DNA of 64,000 nt, from the NCBI RefSeq assembly GCF_001447785.1, contig NW_015165830.1:2535303-2599302 (forward strand). Direction: 5' to 3'. The position numbers and the translations under genes are program-made. Positions 3,900 to 60,234 of this stretch are shown piece by piece. Origin of the DNA: Gekko japonicus (lineage: Eukaryota). Every line of letters begins with the position of its first letter. Position 1 is the stretch's first letter. Below the pieces are notes generated by a model, which had not been told where the DNA came from, ran no database searches, and saw nothing but the letters and a program-made list of their open reading frames with translations.

Positions 3900-4101
3900 N
3901 NNNNNNNNNNNNNNNNNNNCAGTGTGGAATTGGTCTCCATCTAAGACAGCTAGATCTGAGACCAGTAGCTCCTTAGAGACCAACAAGATTTTCAGGGTGT
4001 AAGCTTTTGAGAATGCAAGCTCCCTTTGTCAGGTAGCACTTGAATCTAACTGTTCTACTGCAGACCAACACAGCAACCCTCTGATACTATCCATCTAAGA
4101 C

Positions 4102-16304: not shown

Positions 16305-17120
16305 GTAAGTGTGAGGATACTAAGCCTTTAAGTGGGTAGAGCTTAACATAGATCCTACAGGGCAGATGAGCAGAGTCATGGCTGAAGTAGCAAGTCAGTC
16401 TGCTCTTTCTAATAGTGATTTCTAAGTTATGTAAATAGTCAGTAAAGTTTATCTTATTTTTCATCCTGAAAGTTATTCATAAAGAATGTGACAGTAAGCA
16501 CAGAATCAGACATTTCGATTGATTTTGAAAATTCAGCTGCTTAAATGTCATTTCTGCTAACCAATTAATGTAAATTTGAAGACATTGATATGTGTTGATT
16601 AGTACATTACCCAAACCACAATGCATGTGCCTTTTTGAGCTGTTGAAGGAAGTGTGAAATGGCTAGCAATCTAACAAACATAAGCTACCATTTATGATTA
16701 GAAAGAAAGATTGTCTATAAGTTTAACTTTTTTCAGTCTCTATTACAGGAACTAAAACTTGAACCAAAATAGCTTTCAAAATAAGGAAGTATAACCATAT
16801 AGCACAGTCTCACTATTTAAAATCTCCCTTCACCCAACTAAAATTAGTCCTGACTGATCAAAGAGTTACAGCTCAAACAATTTCAATGATCAGAAGGTTG
16901 CAGGGATGGGAAGCTGCCACCATGCCTGTCACTTTAAGATCTTAGGCAAAATCTGATAGACCCACCTCTGCTACTGTCTGTCATGCACACACATCCTTCA
17001 TCCAACTCAATAGGCAACCTAGCCCAATTGAAAGCCAACCTACACATGACGCAGTCCTTTTGCACCTGAGCCTTCTGAGGAGAACGCAGGCTCTCTTAAG
17101 TATTTGGAAAACTGGAAAGA

Positions 17121-17223
17121 GGGAAGTTGCATATACCATGTAGAGGCAAAGAAGAGTTGCATATAACTACATGTAGAGGCAAAGGGAAGTTGCATATAAC
17201 TACATGTAGAGGCAAAGAAGAGT
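17121..17223. repeat. Three tandem 30-33-bp units (..agttgcatataactacatgtagaggcaaa)
   Basis: Units at 17121-17150, 17151-17183 and 17184-17216. Confidence 0.9.
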
Positions 17224-17235
17224 AGAGTAGAAGAG

Positions 17236-17428
17236 TAAACCATAGAGTTTTCCCTCGGATGACCGTGGCCCCACCCCAAGCGTGCCCGGCGTGGCCGCAT
17301 CACTTCCGGGTGACGTGGACGTTACGTACTTTGGGGGTGGGGTTCCCCCGGGGCCCAATCTGTGCCAGCGGGGAACAGGCCTCTGGGGTGGGGGTTTCCC
17401 CGCCACCCGGGGGGACTTGGGAAGCCTA
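17236..17428. mobile_element. CpG-rich DNA-transposon remnant (Blackjack-like end)
   Basis: aaccatagagtttt...catcacttccgggtgacgt...cttgggaagccta, a degenerate TGGCAACCCTA-type end. Confidence 0.45.
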
Positions 17429-17961
17429 CTTATCAATGTTGCTAAAATGATCTCCCCCACCCCCCGCTAATGACAACTGGAAAAGGCAGTACTAGTAACT
17501 CCTCAGAGTTTTATCAGTTTTTTTATAATCATGCCCCCTTGCATGGATATGTGCTGTTTTCTGCTCTGGCTGGTGCTATATCAATTTGGTGATGCCTTTT
17601 GGAGGAGAATCCCTATCCTCCTCTCTGGGGCTTTATGATTCACTCTTGTGTTCCTGCTGTGACTAGAGACACTGCCTGAAACTTCGACATAGGAAAAGCA
17701 TGGGAACCAGGGTGAGTCTCATGACAGGATAGCACTGTTAGGCAGCTAAACCCTTTCTTGTTGGCTTAAGCTGATGATTAAGGACACAAATGTGTGTTAT
17801 GTATTCTTTCCACTTACACTTTGGTTTACACAGGCTGTATTTCTCCATGCAGTTGCTCTTAAAATGTTTTTGAGTACATGATCAATGAACAGTAGCTTCC
17901 TTACCCCAAGTGGCATTTTAAGAACAATTGAAATAATGGGAATAGTAGGCCTATGTGCACA

Positions 17962-18149
17962 TGAAGCTGCCTTACGCTGATTCAAACCTCTGGTCTATCG
18001 AGATTAGCACTTTCTGCTCTTAACTGTTGGCTCTTCAGGGTCTCAGGTGGTGGTCTTTCATATCACCTGATACTTTTTAACTGGAGATACCAGGGATTGA
18101 GCCTGGGACCTTATGCTTGAAAAGCAGGTGCTCTGCCACTGAGCCATGG
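17962..18149 (-). mobile_element. tRNA-derived SINE with CR1-like tail (Squam2-like)
   Basis: Minus strand: tggctcagtggcagagc (A box) ... ggtcccaggctcaatccc (B box); family name is an inference. Confidence 0.65.
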
Positions 18150-18469
18150 GCACACCCTGTCTTGTTTGCTGAGATCTGAATAATCAGATTCTCCATTATG
18201 TTTCTTCACTTATTTGTATGAAAGAGCAGTAAAGTGGAGGGAAGCAATCAGCAGGATGTGTTTGTGTGAACCAGCCCCCAAGTAAATTGATGGCAAGCAA
18301 TCCTCATCCAAAACGTGTGTTTCTTTTTTGTTGTTAATCATTTAAGGTTTCCAGGATTCCCCCCCTGCCCCTCTAGTTGTTGCTGAAAGCACAAGGAGGA
18401 CAATGTTTTCTTCTTCATTATGTTGTATGCTAATACACTCCTACCTATATGTATGGACTGGTAACTTCC

Positions 18470-18710
18470 ATTTCATTGTATCTGAAGAAGTGTGTGTGCA
18501 CACAAAAGCTTATACCTTGAATAGAACTCTCTTGGTCTTAAAGGTATCACTGGGCTCAAACTTTGTTCCAATGTAGATCCAGGTAATCAGCTGTGTTGGT
18601 CTGAAGCAGTAGAACAAATGTAGACCCCAGTGGCACCTTTAAGACCAACAAAGGTGTATTCAAGGTATGAGCTTTCGTGTACATGCACACTTCTTCAGAT
18701 ACATTGAAAT
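18470..18710. mobile_element. Penelope-like terminal repeats in inverted arrangement
   Basis: 18470-18570 and 18585-18710 are reverse complements (ttggtcttaaaggt / acctttaagaccaa); each carries a hammerhead-like core. Confidence 0.75.
18665..18702 (-). ncRNA. Minimal type I hammerhead ribozyme motif, intact core
   Basis: Minus strand: GUAU-CUGAAGA-A-GUGUG(CAUG)UACAC-GAAA-GC-UC-AUAC; stem I GUAU/AUAC, stem II, palindromic AGCU stem III. Confidence 0.7.
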
Positions 18711-19142
18711 GGGACGTAAGGTTCAATCTTACAGACAGGCTGAACAGTAAATCAACATGTAACATGATGAAGATGTTTTAAGATATGCAAAACCAGAATT
18801 AAATAACAAGCAAAGGTTATAAGGTCAACAGTTGTAAAGCAATAAATATGTTAAAATAAGTCTGAGACTCTCCATTCACTCCCAGAGCGTGTTCCAATGT
18901 TTTATTCTGGTTTTATTCCTACGTCTACCAGCATGTGGCAGCAGATGTTACGTGCACTGTGATGCTGCATTCTGTATCCATCCTTATATCAAAATGAATG
19001 GAAGTCGTTCAAAAGAAGTCTTTGCAAACAGACATCATGCTAACAAATTGTTGATGTTATGTTAATAATAATATAATTATCAGTGTTAATTAAAAATGAA
19101 AGCTGACAGCCGTGAGCTGCTAGCAACAACGAACAAACTGCG

Positions 19143-19312
19143 CTTTAAGACCAACAAAGTTTTATTCAAGCTGTAAGCTTTCGTGTATCTGAGGAAGTGT
19201 GCTTGCATATGAAAGCTTATACCTTGAATAAAACTTTGTTGAACTTAAAGGTGCCACTGGACTCAGACTTGGGTTCTGCTCCTTCAGACCAACGTGGCTA
19301 CCCACCTGAATT
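19143..19312. mobile_element. Second Penelope-like inverted repeat remnant
   Basis: ctttaagaccaacaaagttttattcaag ... cttgaataaaactttgttgaacttaaagg inverted pair. Confidence 0.7.
19185..19222 (+). ncRNA. Minimal type I hammerhead ribozyme motif, sense to the ACSF2 pre-mRNA
   Basis: GUAU-CUGAGGA-A-GUGUG(CUUG)CAUAU-GAAA-GC-UU-AUAC. Confidence 0.6.
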
Positions 19313-19537
19313 TATCAAATTCATTGAGACTGTTTATACTGATGCCAACTTGGTTGTGTCAAAAACTCAGTTAACTTGGGAAATTTCCAGGCTCAGATTG
19401 AGGTTTACCTTTTAATGGAAGAATAAGCATAAAGACCATACCACATATTGAAAATGTAAAATGATAATTTAAAAAGGGCCCTTTAGAAGGTTGCAAAGAA
19501 GACATCTTTCTTTTTGTTTTGTTTTTTTCATTTTCAG

Positions 19538-19614
19538 GAATCATTGCAGGGTCACCAGCACCTCCTGAAATTATTAAGAAGATCATGAAGAAGATGAACA
19601 TGTGGGAAATGGTG
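19538..19614 (+). CDS. ACSF2: ACSF2 coding exon (GIIAGSPAPPEIIKKIMKKMNMWEMV); last ACSF2 exon found in the window
   Basis: ttttcag|GA ATC...GTG|gtaag; 77 nt, phase 1/0; AGSPAPPE motif. Confidence 0.95.
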
Positions 19615-22800: not shown

Positions 22801-25120
22801 AGGTTGGTGGTGAAGCATGTGAGCATTGCACTCGCCACCACCAGGAGCAGCTCAGCAACCTCCCGCTGCCGTGCCTTCTGACGCATAGCAGCAGGACAGG
22901 TGTCTGTGCTGGGATATGCTGTCCGGACAGAGATGCCTACTCTGAAGAGCTGGAGCGATTCCTTCAGGCCCGCTCGGAAGCGTCTCCAAGCCTTCATGGC
23001 CAAAGGTGCTCCCTATGAGCGTGCGGTGGGGGAGGGTCTGCCAAGGGCAGAGGCCGTCACGTGGTGGGGTGGCCATGGCATGGAGGTTTTGTGTGGTGAG
23101 TGCCATGGCCGCTGCAACCACCTGGCCCCAGCTGTGGGTCCTGATCCTGTTGCCCACCATCTTGCACCGACCCCACTTCCCTGACCTATGCCCCTCCACT
23201 CTGCATGTGATCTGCAGGGTGGGGATGCTGCTGCGGGCCTCTGAGAGCAGCAACAAGGGCCCAGTAGCAGCCAGAGCACCCCGGTGCCAACCCCCGCCCC
23301 CACAGAGGAGGGTGACTCCACCATTGCCATGCCCCCATATCCACAGCCAGGGCACACCCATGACATCCCCCAGGGCCTCTCGCCAAGGATCCTGCCCCCA
23401 CATGCCTAGCAAGGAGGAGATGGAGCTGAGCAACGTGGAGGTGGACCAGAACAGCCAGGCTCCCCGGCTGGGAGGTGAGGCACCTCCAGGGGGGGAGTGG
23501 GTGTACAGCCTCAGTGGTCACCTGGGAGCTCCCCTTGACTGCTGCATTTCCCCCCTGTGCCCAGGTCCTGATTGACGTTTGCAGCTGATGTGGTGGAACA
23601 ACTATGCACCCGAGCAGATGCATGGCAATGGCAGTCTCTGTGGTCTTGTGGACGCTTGGCATCCCAGAGTCCCTGGCACCTGGGGAGGAGGGCAGGGTCA
23701 GTGTCTTCGGATGACAGCTGCTGTGTCCCCGCAAACATGGGGGGGGGGGCAGCTGGGCTGTGGCAGCTGTACCTGGGCTAGATGTTGTAGATGCTGGTGG
23801 CCCAGAGGAAAGATACTGGCTGTTTACCACAAGGCCATGTCTGGCATAGCCCATCCCGCCCACCCTTTCCTCCATGTGGGCAGCCATCAAGAGGGAATGG
23901 CTGGAGAGCCATTGCAGGTGACAGGAAGCCTGTTTGAGGGGGCAGCTATGGATGGAGGGGCTGGCAGCCTCTGTGATGGTGGCTGCTGGACATCTGGAGG
24001 AGATTCTTGCCCTATCAGGGGATGCGGGTGAGGGATAGGGGTGCATCAAGAGGCTGCTGGGGGACCTGTCTGAGACTCTCCGGGGGCCCAGCACCCACTG
24101 CCCCTCCTCCTGCAGTGCTTCCGGGTGTGTGTGTGTGTTGAATGTGGGTTAGCATGGGAATACCCTCAGCATCGTGGACGCCTGTCCGGGTGCTGTGACC
24201 ATAGGTGAGTGGAGGGTACCCACAAATCCACATTCTTGTCCCTCGTCACCTTAACCAAGAGGGTTTCCATATAAATGTGTGCATTGCCTCATAGTCCTGT
24301 GCCATTAGTAATGGGGAGCTCTCCGTGTTCAGGGATTGCTAGCACCTGGCCTAGCGGGTACTGGGCTAGCATATCTATAGGCCTGGTAAATTCTCTGGCT
24401 CCCACCTATTTGAGTGGCAACTATAGGATGACTCAAAGGCAAAAGAGAATGAAAAAATCGTTGGTTTCTCCTAATGGCATTTATGGTTCTGTGGCATAAT
24501 ACCTGTGAGAAGTTAGCTGGTAAATATTACACATGCTTCTTCATCTTAGGCCAGACACTGTCTATCAGCCTAGCCTACATTACAGGGTTGTTGTGAGGGT
24601 AAAATGGAAGAGGGGAGTACCATGGGGGAAAGGCAGGATAAAAATGAACTAGATAGATGGATGACTGTACACAAAGTCCACTGCACTGGGATCCTACAAT
24701 TAATATTGGAGTTGCACAACAATCATCACATAGTTCACACATCACCACCTTCTGTAGACAGAGCCATGAATATTAGTGCAGGGTCTTGGGAGGCATTATG
24801 CTATACACTACCACCACCACCAACAGCGTGGGTAAAAACTGGGTAAGAGGATGGCCCTTGAAGATCTGCCATGATACCGCGCTGGGTGGGTACCACTGGA
24901 CTGGCTGTGTACCAGCTACAGGACACTATCTACCTCCAATGAAAGATCTGGCATTTACCGTTGGAAAACCATCTGGTTCTTTATTGAGCACCTTATTTTT
25001 GTGATTCGATAATTTTATTCTGTTTTAAGCTTGTTTTATATGTGGGCATTGTTGCCCTCTTGTAAGTCGCCCTGAGCCCGCTCGCGGGGAGGGCGGGGTA
25101 AAAATACTAATATAAAAAAA

Positions 25121-27464: not shown

Positions 27465-27606
27465 TTAATGGCGACTTCCCTTCTTGGACCTCTTTGTGGG
27501 GAGCCTGCAGCTGCGGAGTGCAGCAGCGTCTCGGATCTGCTGTCCTCGAGCTGCAGAAGGTGATGCGCAAGCTGCATCAGGGCGTGAGCGAGTGGATTCC
27601 AGCCAC
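27465..27606 (-). CDS. CHAD: Chondroadherin coding exon 3 ([13 protein letters not shown]...[14 protein letters not shown])
   Basis: ttctctag|G TGG...CAT TAA ACAG|gtaatt; LRRCT cysteines and the basic C-terminal tail of CHAD. Confidence 0.95.
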
Positions 27607-39900: not shown

Positions 39901-42424
39901 AGGGAGGTAGATTGAAATTGTCCATTGAGACTATGGCTAGTGATATGGACTGCCTGACAAGGTCTCAAGAGAGCAAGAGGAAAGTTGCAGGCTTAACATG
40001 TATGGGAAATTATAGGTGTTAGAAGTGCTAGAAGTGTCCGAGGTAAAACTGGGGAGTTGGAGTGCTTGCTGTTGTGGGGGGGGGGGAATAGACATTGTGG
40101 GTATTTCAGAAACTTGGTGGGATAATGAAAATCAGTAGGATACGGTGATTCCTGGTTATATATTATATCGAAAGGATGGGGGGGAAGGGCTGGAGGTGGG
40201 GTGGCTCTGTATGTCAGAGAGGGTATACAGTCCAGTAAGATTGAGAGGGTAAGTGAACTGGATTTGCTTCTGGAAATGCCATGGGTTGAAATAGTGGGCC
40301 CAAAAGGAAGCTTAACACTGGGAGTTTGTTATCGCCCACCAGATCAAAAGATAGAGGAGGATTATAAAATGATGAATGAATTAAAGATAGTGGCTAGACA
40401 AAAAAACTGTGTCATAATAGGGGATTTTAACTATCCACACATTGATTGGGTCAATATGTGTTCTAGTCGGGAAGAAGAGATTGAGTTTCTAGACACTCTT
40501 AATGTCTGTGCTATGGAGCAGATGGTCACGGAACCTACCAGGGGAGAGGCGATCCTTGATTTGGTCCTAAGTAACACTCAAGACCTGGTGAGAGATGTAA
40601 AAGTGATTGCACCGCTTGGGAACAGTGATCATAATGTTGTTGAGTTCAACATTTGTACAAATAGGGAATTGGCCAAAAAGACTCACACAACCACTTTTAA
40701 CTTTAAAAGGGGTAATTTTTCTGATATGAGGGGACATGTGGGGAGGAAACTGAAGGGAAAAGTAGAAAGGGTCAAAACCATTGGGGAAGCTTGGAAACTG
40801 TTTAAAACTACAATTCTAGAAGCTCAAATAAAATATATTCCGCAGGTTAGGAAAGGCACAAACAGGTATAAGAAAAAGCCTACATGGTTAACAAACAAAG
40901 TAATGGAAGCTGTAAAAGGTAAAAAGGATTCCTTTAAGCGGTGGAAAGCTAGTCACAGTGAGGCTGATAAAACAGAACACAGGCTATGGCAAATAAAATG
41001 CAAGTCTGTGGTCAGGCATGCAAAAAGGGAATATGAGGAGCATATAGCAAAAAACGTAAAAACCAACAATAAAACTTTCTTCAAATACATTAGAAACAGG
41101 AAACCAGCCAGGGAGGCAGTGGGGCCCTTGGATGACCAAGGGGTAAAAGGAGTACTGAAGGATGATAGGGAAATGGCTGAGAAGCTAAATGCATTTTTTG
41201 CCTCCGTCTTCACTGTGGAAGATGAGAGGTGCTTGCCCACTCCAGAGCCGCTGAGTTCGGGAGGGGTGTTGAAAGACCTGAGTCAGATTGAGGTGACGAG
41301 AGAGGAGGTCCTAAAACTGATAAACAACTTAAAAACTGATAAATCACCAGGCCCAGATGGCATACATCCAAGAGTTCTGAAAGAACTCAATTGTGAACTT
41401 GTGGATCTCCTGACAAAAATATGTAATCTCTCCTTAAAATCAGCCTCCATTCCTGAGGACTGGAAGGTAGCTAATGTCACTCCCATCTTTAAAAAGGGTT
41501 CCAGAGGAGATCCGGGAAATTACAGGCCTGTCAGTCTGACGTCGATACCGGGTAAATTGGTGGAAACCATTATTAAGGAAAGAATTAGTAGGCACATAGA
41601 TGAACAAAACCTATTGAGGCAGACTCAACATGGGTTCTGTAAGGGAAGATCTTGTCTCACTAACCTGTTAATGTTCTTTGAGGGGGTGAACAAACATGTG
41701 GACAAGGGGGATCCAATAGATATTGTTTACCTTGACTTCCAGAAAGCTTTTGATAAAGTTCCTCATCAAAGGCTCCTAAGCAAGCTCAAAAATCATGGGA
41801 TAAAAGGACAAGTCCTTTTATGGATCAAAAACTGGCTAATTAATAGAAAACAGAGAGTGAGTATAAATGGGCAGTTCTCCCAGTGGAGGGGTGTAAGCAG
41901 TGGGGTACCACAGGGATCAGTACTTGGTCCACTGCTTTTTAACTTGTTCATTAATGATTTGGAGTTGGGAGTAAGCAGTGAAGTGGCTAAATTTGCGGAT
42001 GATACGAAGTTGTTCAGGGTGGTGAAAACCAGTGAGGATTGTGAGGCACTCCAAAGGGATCTGTCAAAGTTGGGCGAGTGGGCGTCAACATGGCAAATGG
42101 GGTTCAATGTGGCCAAGTGCAAGGTGATGCACATTGGAGCCAAAAATCCTAACTATAAATACACGTTGATGGGGTCTGAACTGGCAGAGACAGATCAAGA
42201 GAGAGATCTTGGAGTTGTAGTAGATAACTCACTGAAAATGTCGAGACAGTGTGTGACTGCAATAAAGAAGGCCAATGCTATGCTGGGGATTATTAGGAAG
42301 GGTATTGTAAACAGATCAGCCAATATCATAATGCCGCTATATAAATCAATGGTGCGACCTCATCTGGAATACTGTGTGCAATTAGGAGGTGGTGGCGGCT
42401 ACAAGCATAGACAGCTTCAAGGAG
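39900..42424 (+). mobile_element. CR1 LINE, ORF2 region; 5'-truncated, 3' internally deleted
   Basis: APE endonuclease plus RT; N-terminus disrupted at 40010-40200; deletion junction at ~42381. Confidence 0.95.
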
Positions 42425-42429
42425 GCTGA
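40201..42429 (+). CDS. CR1 ORF2 endonuclease/reverse transcriptase, 742-aa open segment (incomplete; likely non-functional)
   Basis: Motifs GDFNYP, LDLVL, SDHN, KSPGPDG, YRPVSLTS, DFQKAFD, GVPQGSVLGP, FADD. Confidence 0.85.
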   Translation: MALYVREGIQSSKIERVSELDLLLEMPWVEIVGPKGSLTLGVCYRPPDQKIEEDYKMMNELKIVARQKNCVIIGDFNYPHIDWVNMCSSREEEIEFLDTLNVCAMEQMVTEPTRGEAILDLVLSNTQDLVRDVKVIAPLGNSDHNVVEFNICTNRELAKKTHTTTFNFKRGNFSDMRGHVGRKLKGKVERVKTIGEAWKLFKTTILEAQIKYIPQVRKGTNRYKKKPTWLTNKVMEAVKGKKDSFKRWKASHSEADKTEHRLWQIKCKSVVRHAKREYEEHIAKNVKTNNKTFFKYIRNRKPAREAVGPLDDQGVKGVLKDDREMAEKLNAFFASVFTVEDERCLPTPEPLSSGGVLKDLSQIEVTREEVLKLINNLKTDKSPGPDGIHPRVLKELNCELVDLLTKICNLSLKSASIPEDWKVANVTPIFKKGSRGDPGNYRPVSLTSIPGKLVETIIKERISRHIDEQNLLRQTQHGFCKGRSCLTNLLMFFEGVNKHVDKGDPIDIVYLDFQKAFDKVPHQRLLSKLKNHGIKGQVLLWIKNWLINRKQRVSINGQFSQWRGVSSGVPQGSVLGPLLFNLFINDLELGVSSEVAKFADDTKLFRVVKTSEDCEALQRDLSKLGEWASTWQMGFNVAKCKVMHIGAKNPNYKYTLMGSELAETDQERDLGVVVDNSLKMSRQCVTAIKKANAMLGIIRKGIVNRSANIIMPLYKSMVRPHLEYCVQLGGGGGYKHRQLQGG

Positions 42430-45009: not shown

Positions 45010-45440
45010 CTTTAAAACAGAAGTCTGGTGGCACCATAAAGACTAACAGCGTTTAGCTTGCTTGTGGGGAGGGCAGGGTACAAGTCCAATAAAATAAATA
45101 AAAATAAATACATTATCCAAACATGAGCTTTTGTGAGTCAGAGCTCACTTCTTCAGAAACGTATTGGAAGGAAATAGTTTTGCACACATTTTTAAGGAAA
45201 ATTACAGAGGGGAGAGGGAGGATTAGACAGAGAATTACGCCTGAAAAAATTATAATTTGATCCATGTCAAGCCTCGCTCTATCCCAGCTCCTCCGCCCTC
45301 ATCCTCTGTAGTTTCCTTATAAATGCACACAAAATTATTCCCTTCCTTCTGAAGAAGTGAGCTCTGACTCACGAAAATTCATGCTGGGATGAATGCTGTT
45401 AGTCTTTAAGGTACCACCGGACATCTATTTTATTTTGCTA
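45010..45440. mobile_element. Palindromic Penelope-like element with a hammerhead motif in each arm
   Basis: Arms ~45010-45230 and ~45285-45440 are reverse complements. Confidence 0.75.
45349..45384 (+). ncRNA. Hammerhead core, second family; stem I not formed locally
   Basis: CUGAAGA-A-GUGAG(CUCUGA)CUCAC-GAAA-AU-UC. Confidence 0.5.
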
Positions 45441-48667: not shown

Positions 48668-49410
48668 GGCATACTATATGCATTAAAGGACGTAAACTCT
48701 AATCTACACAAACTGGTGCTAGAATAAAAATGCGTTAGTTTTATAGGTGCCTCAAGGCTCTTGTTTGTTTTTGCTGCTGCCCCTCTGTCCTCTGGTCGCC
48801 TTTGCATTGCTGCACAGGCATGGGACAGAGAACCTGTTGTATATCCTTCAGAAGCATTCAGGAACTGGATGGCCTGTGCAGCTCTTCCGCCTTTACTACT
48901 GCTGTATGGGAAGCAGGGATGCAACAAGTGAAGCTTTTCCTGGCTCAGACTGGTGAGGATAAGAGCTTCATCGGCTGAATTTCTGCCTTGTGAGCCCTGT
49001 CAAAGACACAGGAGCCCCACTAAGAAAGAAAGTTGACAACACTTTAAGGGATATGTAGTGACTCAGTAGAACTGTACAGTCCAGCTTCCCCAGGACATGC
49101 GAGGGTAGGCAACAGTTGCAATGGCTTTAAGACCAGCAGCAGTGTCCATTGAATGCCCTGGAGAGATGGGGAAGGACAGGATTGGTCCACTGGCTTTAGA
49201 GGCACTGGCTTCTATAGATTTATTTTACTGCAGGATACCAGCAATTCAGACAATTCACAGCCCCATCCAATCATTATTTCCATGACCTATGAAACCACCT
49301 CTCCCCATATGAGCCCCAGAGGGTACTGACTCAGTACTACTGAGGTCCACAAATCAACATCTGTTAGTGATTCCTGGCCCCAGGGACGTCCAGCTAGCCT
49401 CAAACAGGGC

Positions 49411-57517: not shown

Positions 57518-60234
57518 ATGGCCACTGTCATTTTCTCAGTGGGACAGTAGTGTACCTTGACAACTCCTTGCCCCTGCAGGACCCTCACATACTGGTTTCT
57601 AATTCCAATTAGCTTTATCGGTTTGCTGTTCCTTTCTGAAAGAGAGAGGGCTATACAACTCTGGTTATCCTCTAGCAGTTGAGCTGTTGACCTGGGAAAG
57701 GTTCCTTAATACCAAAAGCCTCCACTTTAAGCCACTCTGCACACTTCAGAAACAGATACAATTTCTTGTTTATGACTTGCCCAACTTATAGCACCACCCG
57801 CATAGAAAAATACATAACTGATCTTAGGTCTGATCTTTCTCCAGCCCAGTCTATATCAGTGTATCCCAACAGTGTGGGATTATTAGTTGCTGTTTCAATT
57901 TAAAGTGTTGGGTCATATGGTAGCAATGTCTTTGTGAGGTAGGTTAGTTTCTCAGCTGGAATTCCCTGGTTGGCCTGTGATGAGCATCTGAGGTCCAGGG
58001 TCTTGTCTACCTCCACAGTGGTCTCCGGCTCCTCTGGTTCACCTGCTGGTTCAGGAACTTCCGCCTTCACCTCCTCTTCTGGTTGACCATCTGGTTGTGT
58101 CTGCATAGTGACTGCATCTGTTGGCTCTGGGTGATATGCCAGCAGCTGGTTGTTGTCACTGCTTCCCTCTGGGCAGTCATCTATTGCAGCAGCCTGATTA
58201 TTCCTTGGTTGCTCATTGAACTGCACCACTTCACTTGTAGTATAATTTGGTTAGTGTTTGGGTGTAGAATTCAGTAACCCTTGCTGTCTGTAGAATAGCC
58301 TACAAAGATTCCTTCTTCAGCTCTGGGTTCTAGTTTGGATCTCTTTTCTTTTGGTATATGAGCATAGGCTTTGGATTCAAATATCCTAGTGTGTTCTATG
58401 CTTGGCTTTCTGTTATGCTATAACTCATGAAGAGTTTTCTCTGTGGCTTTCTCTGTGGCTGTTGGCAATCTGTTTTGCAAGTAAGCTGCAGTCATTGCAG
58501 CTTTTCCCCAGTGCCTGTAGGGAAGGCCTGAGTGAATTAACATGCATCTGACCATGTCCATTATAGAGTGATTCTTGCTGTCATCAACCCCATTCTGTTC
58601 CGGTGTGTAGGGTACAGTAAGTCTGTGCTGGATTCCATATTCCCTTAGGAATGCCTGCACTGATCTAGATGTGTACTCACCACCACGATCAGGTTGGATG
58701 GCTTGGGGTTTTCTGTTGAACTTGTTAGAAACCATGGCAATGTAGTCTTCAGTTTCCAATTTTTGTTTCAGCATATAAGAACATAAGAGAAGCCATGGTG
58801 GATCAGGCCAATGGCCCATCCAGTCCAACAGTCTGTGTTACAAAACCCAGGTGCCATCAGGAGGTCCACCAACGGAGCCAGAACTCCAGAAGCCGTCCCA
58901 CTGTTGCCCCCCATACATCAAGAATACAGAGCATCACTGCCACAGACAGTGTTCCATCTATACCTTGTGGCTAATAGCCGCGGATGGACCTCTGCTCCAT
59001 CAGTTTATCCAATTCCCTCTTGAAGCTGTCTATGTTTATAGTCACCACCACTTCCTGCGGCAGTGAATTCCATGTGTTAATTACTCTTTGGGTGAAGAAG
59101 TATTTCCTTTTATCTGTTCTAAGTCTACTGCTCATTAATGTCATGGAGTGCCCATGAGTTTTTGTATTGTGAGAAAGGGAGAAAAGTACTTCTTTACCTG
59201 CTCTTTCCCATGCATAACCTTGTAAACCTTGATCATGTCACCCCTCAGTTGTCGTTTCTCCAAGCTAAAGAGTCCCAAGCGCTTTAACTTTTCTTCATAG
59301 GGAAAGTGTTTCAACCCTTTTATCATTCGAGTGGCCCTTTTCTGCACCTTTTCCAATGCTATAATATCTTTTTTGAGGTGCTTTGATCAGAACTGTACAC
59401 AGTATTCCAAATGAAGCTGCACCATAGGGGCATTATTATACTGGCTGATTAGTTTTCAGTCCCCTTCCTAATAATCCCCAGCATAGCATTTTCCTTTTTT
59501 ATTGCAGTTGCACACCGAGTTGACATCTTCAGTGTGTTATCTACCACTACTCCAAGATATTTCTCCTGGTCAGTTACCGCCAGTTCGGACCCCATCAACA
59601 TATATTTATAGTTAGGATTTTTGGCTCCAATATACAGTAGTTTGCACTTGCCCATGATGTACATCATTTACCACATTGATGTCCACTTGCCTAGCCTCAA
59701 CAGACCCATCCAAAGCTTCTCACAGTCCTCCTTGGTTCTCACCACTCTGAACAATTTAGTATCATCTGCAGACTTAGCCACTTCATTGCTTATGCCCAAC
59801 TCCAAATCATTAATGAACAAGTTAAAAAGCACCGGACCTAGTACCGAGCCCTGTGGTGCCCCATTGTTTACCACTTTCCACTGTGAAAACTGCCCATTTA
59901 TACTCATTCTCTGTTTCCTGTTAATTAACCAGTTTTTAATTCACAAGAGGACTTGTCCTCTTATACCATGACTGCTAAGTTTACTTAGGAGCCTTTGATG
60001 AGGAACATTATCAAAAGCTTTCTGGAGATCTAGGTAGACAACATCTACTATGTCACCCTTGTCCACATTTGTTCACCCCCTCAAAGAACTCTAAAAGGTT
60101 AGTGAGACAAGATCTTCCCTTACAGAATCCATGCTAATTCTTCCTCAATAGTTTTTTCCATCAATGTGCCTACTAATTTTATCTTTAATAACAGATTCCA
60201 CCACCTTACCTGATATGGAGGTTAAACTGACTGG

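Follow-up and report, generated by a model that had tools for sequence, protein, structure and literature searches.

One intron of a Gekko japonicus gene that we identify as ACSF2 contains a cluster of minimal hammerhead ribozyme motifs, which are very probably four decayed ends of Penelope-like elements (PLEs), likely brought in by three insertions, and two predicted pre-mRNA hairpins between them would block cutting. The motifs themselves are real, and the cluster is ordinary genomic debris, not a gene switch. Its class, its layout and the weak activity of such ribozymes are already in print. All coordinates below refer to the window, the whole 64,000-nt stretch of DNA that was analysed (Table 1).

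Hammerhead motifs in the ACSF2 intron

The original prediction described three hammerhead motifs in this intron, and all three are present where it placed them; it overlooked a fourth, inverted half-copy (D), which brings the cluster to four pieces. Motifs A, B, and C share a 5-bp stem II, a short helix I, an additional A following position 9 and, as described, a loopless AGCU stem III, with no helix III stem beyond these four letters. The CUGANGA and GAAA boxes with a UH site are present in B and C, while D comprises the 3′ half only. Copy A, with the core CUGAAGA, indeed carries AAAA in place of GAAA next to a preserved CUU site. Because G12 is the general base of the hammerhead (PMC6155905), this G12A change predicts that A is dead as an enzyme. 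Copy B, on the minus strand, retains the core and GAAA as claimed and has a CUC site. Copy C had likewise been called intact, which is true of its core letters (CUGAGGA, GAAA, CUU) but not of its stem II, where two of the five pairs are G-U. These include the usually conserved pair 10.1-11.1 that closes helix II, which is G-C in A and B and G-U in C, and motif C folded alone is predicted not to adopt the hammerhead shape.

Table 1 Coordinates of the cluster and of its host intron in the window.
Feature	Position	Strand	Remarks
ACSF2 intron with the cluster	16305-19537	+	GT..AG; 12 spliced reads, in 2 of 3 RNA runs
Target-site duplication of insertion A, 9 bp	left 18401-18409, right 18895-18903		Shared letters
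Insertion A	18410-18568	+	5′-truncated PLE pLTR fragment without terminal tail; homology to genome loci spans about 18410-18568
Hammerhead A	18478-18515	+	CUU at 18509-18511; G12 to A at CpG
Target-site duplication of insertion B, 11 bp	left 18564-18574, right 18890-18900		Shared letters
Insertion B	18575-18889	-	Longer 5′-truncated pLTR fragment with tail; 309 nt at 84% to locus L128
Hammerhead B	18665-18702	-	Best preserved copy; CUC site; antisense to ACSF2
Piece D	19143-19187	-	3′ half of the motif region in inverted orientation, lying head-to-head with C and adjoining hammerhead C
Insertion C	19184-19319	+	5′-truncated pLTR end with tail; begins just before the motif
Hammerhead C	19185-19222	+	Core letters intact; two G-U in stem II; CUU at 19216-19218
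ACSF2 exon after the cluster	19538-19614	+	Sequence and spliced reads

An Rfam scan of the whole window returned no hammerhead model at the gathering score, its sole match being a tRNA. The canonical CTGATGA...GAAA pattern gave 0 matches, since the cores read CUGAAGA and CUGAGGA. The tRNA-like match (18029-18153, minus strand, 37.3 bits) is highly repeated in DNA contigs, matches loci L125 and L138, and is likely a tRNA-derived SINE. When exact patterns built on the gecko motifs were searched in the genome, the intact-core form had 1,424 matches and the G12A form 1,187, compared with 0 for the reversed-pattern controls, so the motifs are not chance occurrences. A first look at the genome with a 108-nt query yielded 2,206 candidates. 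Scaling from the 14 of 59 sampled copies that match either pattern puts the number of motif-spanning copies at ~11,000, a rough figure because the sample is not random. More diverged relatives of the repeat also occur elsewhere in the window, at 45014-45439, 3948-4035 and 48719-48773, with opposite-strand pieces near 45.0-45.4 kb.

The Penelope-like element family

The Penelope origin proposed for the motifs is borne out by family loci that carry both a reverse transcriptase (RT) and a GIY-YIG endonuclease domain, with the motifs as pLTR ends. At locus L169, RVT_1 (49.4 bits) and GIY-YIG (26.7 bits) both exceed their cut-offs, and the motif family lies downstream on the same strand. Locus L145 has a GIY-YIG match of 27.3 bits, and at locus L120 the hammerhead repeat lies ~300 nt downstream of a GIY-YIG match, again on the same strand. 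Two pieces of locus L165 give no Pfam match and match a PLE RT by tblastn. A DNA query from locus L003 that spans the endonuclease end and a pLTR copy picked up 29 loci, and a family match is present in 26 of them. Endonuclease remnants are present at 8 of 88 loci picked by motif, and a GIY-YIG search of the genome gave 141 matches. Judged by sequence, the motifs are the standard minimal hammerhead of the pLTR of an endonuclease-positive PLE.

Such minimal type I hammerheads are known from metazoan PLEs (Cervera and De la Pena 2014, PMC4209133), and among reptiles the motifs have been reported in turtle and snakes (PMC4209133). The gecko copies share with those described there the CUGANGA/GAAA boxes, the extra base between positions 9 and 10.1, the loopless palindromic stem III, the 4-5 bp helix I, the pLTR location and the occurrence as dispersed, truncated copies. 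Set against the features in the accessible part of that paper, they differ only in their ACSF2 intron location and in their decay (G12A in A, the G-U pair 10.1-11.1 in C). A literature search for ACSF2 together with hammerhead found no report.

The family also resembles the endonuclease-positive PLEs of the Neptune/Nematis type, in which a 5′-truncated inverted copy adjoins the 5′ end (Craig et al. 2021, PMC8557442). Family members show the RT followed by a C-terminal GIY-YIG domain upstream of the pLTR with its hammerhead, and family translations contain a cysteine finger (CX2-5CxxC) in the RT-endonuclease linker, a feature attributed to Neptune and Nematis and not to Penelope/Poseidon (PMC8557442). 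The adjacent inverted 5′-truncated copy (D/C) and the presence of a tail on some ends only are further points of likeness to the elements of PMC8557442. Unlike the elements in the available portion of that account, the ACSF2 locus has no open reading frame, and its tail-to-tail A/B pair appears to have been produced by nested insertion and not by a single event.

The long-frame GIY-YIG elements recovered from the genome mostly belong to other PLE families. Examples of these other families are found at loci L121-L132 (e.g. L126:1651-5040, L129:1251-3179 and L127), where RT-GIY-YIG frames are long and open and copies are near-identical, some of them in inverted pairs; they are apparently much younger than the hammerhead-motif family.

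Probable order of insertion

Two nested target-site duplications point to separate insertions of the 18478 and 18665 copies, with the 18665 copy landing in the end of the 18478 copy. The left 11-bp duplication of B spans the end of A together with A's own right duplication, a nesting in which A would have inserted first and B then in reverse orientation at the junction between A's 3′ end and its duplication. Shared stretches of this length are rare by chance: among 2,820 trials with random pairs of 40-45 nt windows from the ACSF2 intron, 16 pairs shared at least 9 nt and three shared at least 11 nt. We reject a single insertion giving rise to both A and B on account of the two nested duplications and the different upstream sequence. 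B now lies tail-to-tail with A, and the two form a 106-bp inverted repeat at 83% identity. A, B, and C are mutually 80-84% identical, about the expectation for independent decay of 10% each. D and C can be recognized as the head-to-head inverted pair typical of PLEs, and no target-site duplication was found for D/C. The history we propose is that A preceded B, that D/C would represent one insertion and that all copies would since have mutated neutrally.

Clusters of this kind recur in the genome. We surveyed 88 other loci, leaving out L001 and L031 (the ACSF2 locus itself), and found two or more copies within ~1.5 kb at 48 of them. An opposite-strand copy lies within 800 nt at 39 loci (39 divergent, 4 convergent), both same- and opposite-strand neighbors occur at 12, three or more copies at 17, and four or more at 6. 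The tail-to-tail layout of A/B is uncommon (4 of 88 loci), and with four pieces within 1 kb the ACSF2 cluster falls in the top tenth of loci. Opposite-strand hammerhead pairs 100-700 bp apart have already been reported (PMC4209133).

Contigs of two related organisms end near the outer edge of B (18857 and 18870; 18862 in the same species) and near the outer edge of C (19289 and 19301; 19286 in the same species). These break points give a weak hint that both B and C are present there. Beyond 19136-19144 the contigs contain unlike sequence for 57-68 letters, and their breaks at the repeats leave the orthologous cores unread.

Predicted folding and the proposed cleavage switch

The predicted fold of the region 18400-19350 is built from the A/B and D/C hairpins and has an energy of -324 kcal/mol (z -14.8); the D/C hairpin (~50 bp) alone has -54.7 kcal/mol (z -10.4). 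Sequestration of the motifs by adjacent inverted copies, as anticipated, is what the fold predicts: the site of A and the GAAA-AGCU segment of C are paired to these copies with a probability of about 1. The cluster holds two sense and two antisense copies, and a swap of partners (B with C, A with D) still hides A and C.

The original prediction went on to suggest that, in ACSF2 pre-mRNA, the core at 19185 could pair with the 18478 copy and cleave it, in competition with the hairpins, which would make a potential folding-dependent switch. We consider this extremely improbable. The pairing is topologically possible, through AGCU/AGCU in stem III and GUAU/AUAC in helix I, with an intact core in C and a CUU site in A, and conserved intronic hammerheads are known in amniotes (PMC6155905). 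In vitro, monomers of the minimal PLE hammerheads are inactive and dimers cleave to some extent; this activity is low and was seen mostly at non-physiological Mg2+ in the experiments covered by the accessible part of PMC4209133. However, forcing the active dimer (C core, A site) costs +90.6 kcal/mol relative to the hairpin ensemble in a model that ignores tertiary contacts, proteins, helicases and editing. With 18575-18759 and 19140-19183 kept unpaired, so that B and D cannot compete, the cost is still +23.6 kcal/mol, an overestimate, since the tertiary core of the hammerhead is not represented in the model. Every alternative pairing of the four copies also hides A or C, stem II of C is weakened, A and B arrived as separate insertions, and the copies show no excess conservation.

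The order of synthesis would likewise favor the hairpins over the dimer. A would pair with B ~470 nt before transcription of C begins, and D, transcribed just before C, would capture its GAAA-AGCU-site half. With the hairpins formed first, the intron would be spliced uncut.

Another reading gives the inverted repeats a function as double-stranded RNA that is edited by ADAR and measurably alters splicing or circularization of nearby ACSF2 exons. The editing of long intronic duplexes is established, the 106-bp and ~50-bp hairpins have the strong folding score given above, and the C/D hairpin ends ~290 nt from the 3′ splice site. Nevertheless, the RNA reads list no splice joint besides the normal one, both hairpins lie wholly within one intron and flank no exon, and the locus is not distinguished from the 39 of 88 with a similar arrangement, which leaves an effect of this kind on ACSF2 very unlikely. 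By analogy with inverted SINE pairs, the hairpins are plausible ADAR substrates as a by-product.

Decay and selection

The original prediction took conservation above that of neutral PLE copies as a mark of function, and within the genome the copies are no better conserved. For this comparison 59 motif-spanning copies, chosen without regard to core letters although not a random draw, were kept out of 212 aligned, after removal of rows that scored below 70 bits or failed to span the motif. Over 89 nt, each of A, B, and C has 89.9% identity to the family majority; the median of the 59 copies is 92.1% (IQR 89.7-93.3), which makes the window copies slightly less well preserved than the median family copy. 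The core letters are intact in 26 of the 59 copies, nine of which have also kept all stems. That two of the three window cores are intact is unremarkable beside this fraction, but does not speak against function.

Changed letters make up 5.4% of the non-CpG core (32/590) and 5.9% of the downstream flank (133/2,265), a comparison tilted toward equality because part of the sample was chosen by flank likeness, which hides an excess in the core. G12 is changed in 18 of the 59 copies, and C11.1T, also a product of CpG decay, is found in 18. G12 follows a C, which makes G12A a case of CpG decay. Genome-wide, G12A exceeds C11.1T by ~1.5-fold (1,187 vs 776) among copies with an intact G8. We considered whether the excess of G12A reflects purging of active ribozymes and rejected this, as the same skew is present in copies with a dead G8 (89 vs 52; Fisher p 0.59 for a difference in ratio). 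With the same ratio in G8-intact and G8-dead copies, the skew does not track catalytic state. It may be a context or subfamily bias that favors G-to-A over C-to-T; in the 59 copies, two further probable CpG sites of the repeat show a similar tendency. Overall, the copies appear to have mutated neutrally.

Host gene and transcription

We use the name ACSF2 on the basis of a weak Pfam match to AMP-binding (E 1.4e-4, below cut-off), of peptide motifs in the exons that we take to be those of ACSF2, and of a nested antisense CHAD, presumably the arrangement found in human. The exon said to follow the 19185 motif by about 315 nt begins 316 nt past its end. The next exon of the host gene lies ~50 kb on, beyond the window (locus L141), and CHAD, whose identity is confirmed by a match to PDB chondroadherin (E 8e-128), is antisense inside that intron. 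The same intron contains a 766-aa open frame (40129-42429, plus strand), presumably a CR1-type LINE reverse transcriptase, with further fragments at 60.4-62.9 kb. A short frame at 58418-58837 (minus strand) resembles what we take to be an LTR-retrotransposon integrase core. At ~316-1000 there is an extended tandem array of 15-bp units in which several reading frames are open.

The minus-strand copy was placed ~7 kb downstream of CHAD, which is roughly right: B lies 8.8 kb from the CHAD stop codon (27465-27467) and 6.3 kb from the first downstream A(A/T)TAAA signal, at 25019. As the best preserved copy, on the CHAD strand and 6-9 kb downstream of the gene, B might be imagined to cut CHAD read-through RNA as a fail-safe terminator, to which we attach virtually no probability. 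A minimal hammerhead requires a partner on the same strand, and B has no other candidate there than D, which mismatches at two of four positions in its half of helix I. In minus-strand RNA, 35 of the 38 positions of the B motif are predicted to pair with antisense A, and several A(A/T)TAAA signals already intervene between CHAD and B.

RNA data came from three raw-read runs of one study, with 3-12% of each read. The intron is normally spliced, and the only listed splice joint is the normal one. Unique bins of the intron show no or near-zero RNA depth and no pile-up of read starts or ends, at an exon depth of only ~1-8 that would miss rare cleavage products. Between 77 and 94% of the RNA reads placed on the locus continue into other sequence; reads over the repeat therefore derive from other copies and are uninformative on editing or cleavage here. 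At 18441-18473, ~250 reads of run X21 exit the repeat at 18472-18473 into one common other sequence, which suggests that a single well-expressed transcript from another locus contains a piece of the hammerhead repeat.

Discussion

Two further classes of hammerhead RNAs invite comparison with the ACSF2 cluster. Like the amniote hammerheads of RECK, CTCL and DTNB (PMC6155905), the ACSF2 copies are of type I and lie in an intron of a reptile gene. In the available part of that paper, the RECK, CTCL and DTNB hammerheads show conservation between groups of amniotes and are depicted with tertiary contacts, whereas the ACSF2 copies belong to a repeat of thousands of copies, lack helix III and have no excess of conservation. 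Animal non-LTR retrozymes (bioRxiv 10.64898/2026.07.22.740005) are likewise pLTR-related hammerhead repeats, present in reptiles, and more than 40% of the Xenopus retrozyme copies are intronic. According to the portion of that preprint available, retrozymes consist of head-to-tail tandem units, in contrast to the dispersed, truncated and inverted copies of the ACSF2 intron.

A role selected in the lizard lineage, in which a helicase, a splicing factor or ADAR opens the hairpins so that 19185 cuts 18478, or in which the hairpins tune ACSF2 splicing, is highly improbable. If such a regulated cut were true, minimal PLE hammerheads would here have been put together into a host switch, of which we found no example in the literature examined.

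Read as the remains of decayed PLE ends, the cluster illustrates how the nesting of one PLE insertion in another creates long hairpins within an intron, which would keep the ribozyme of the element itself silent. The genome-wide counts of intact and changed motifs provide a simple test for selection, and they give no sign of selection for or against the catalytic letters in this hammerhead-PLE family.
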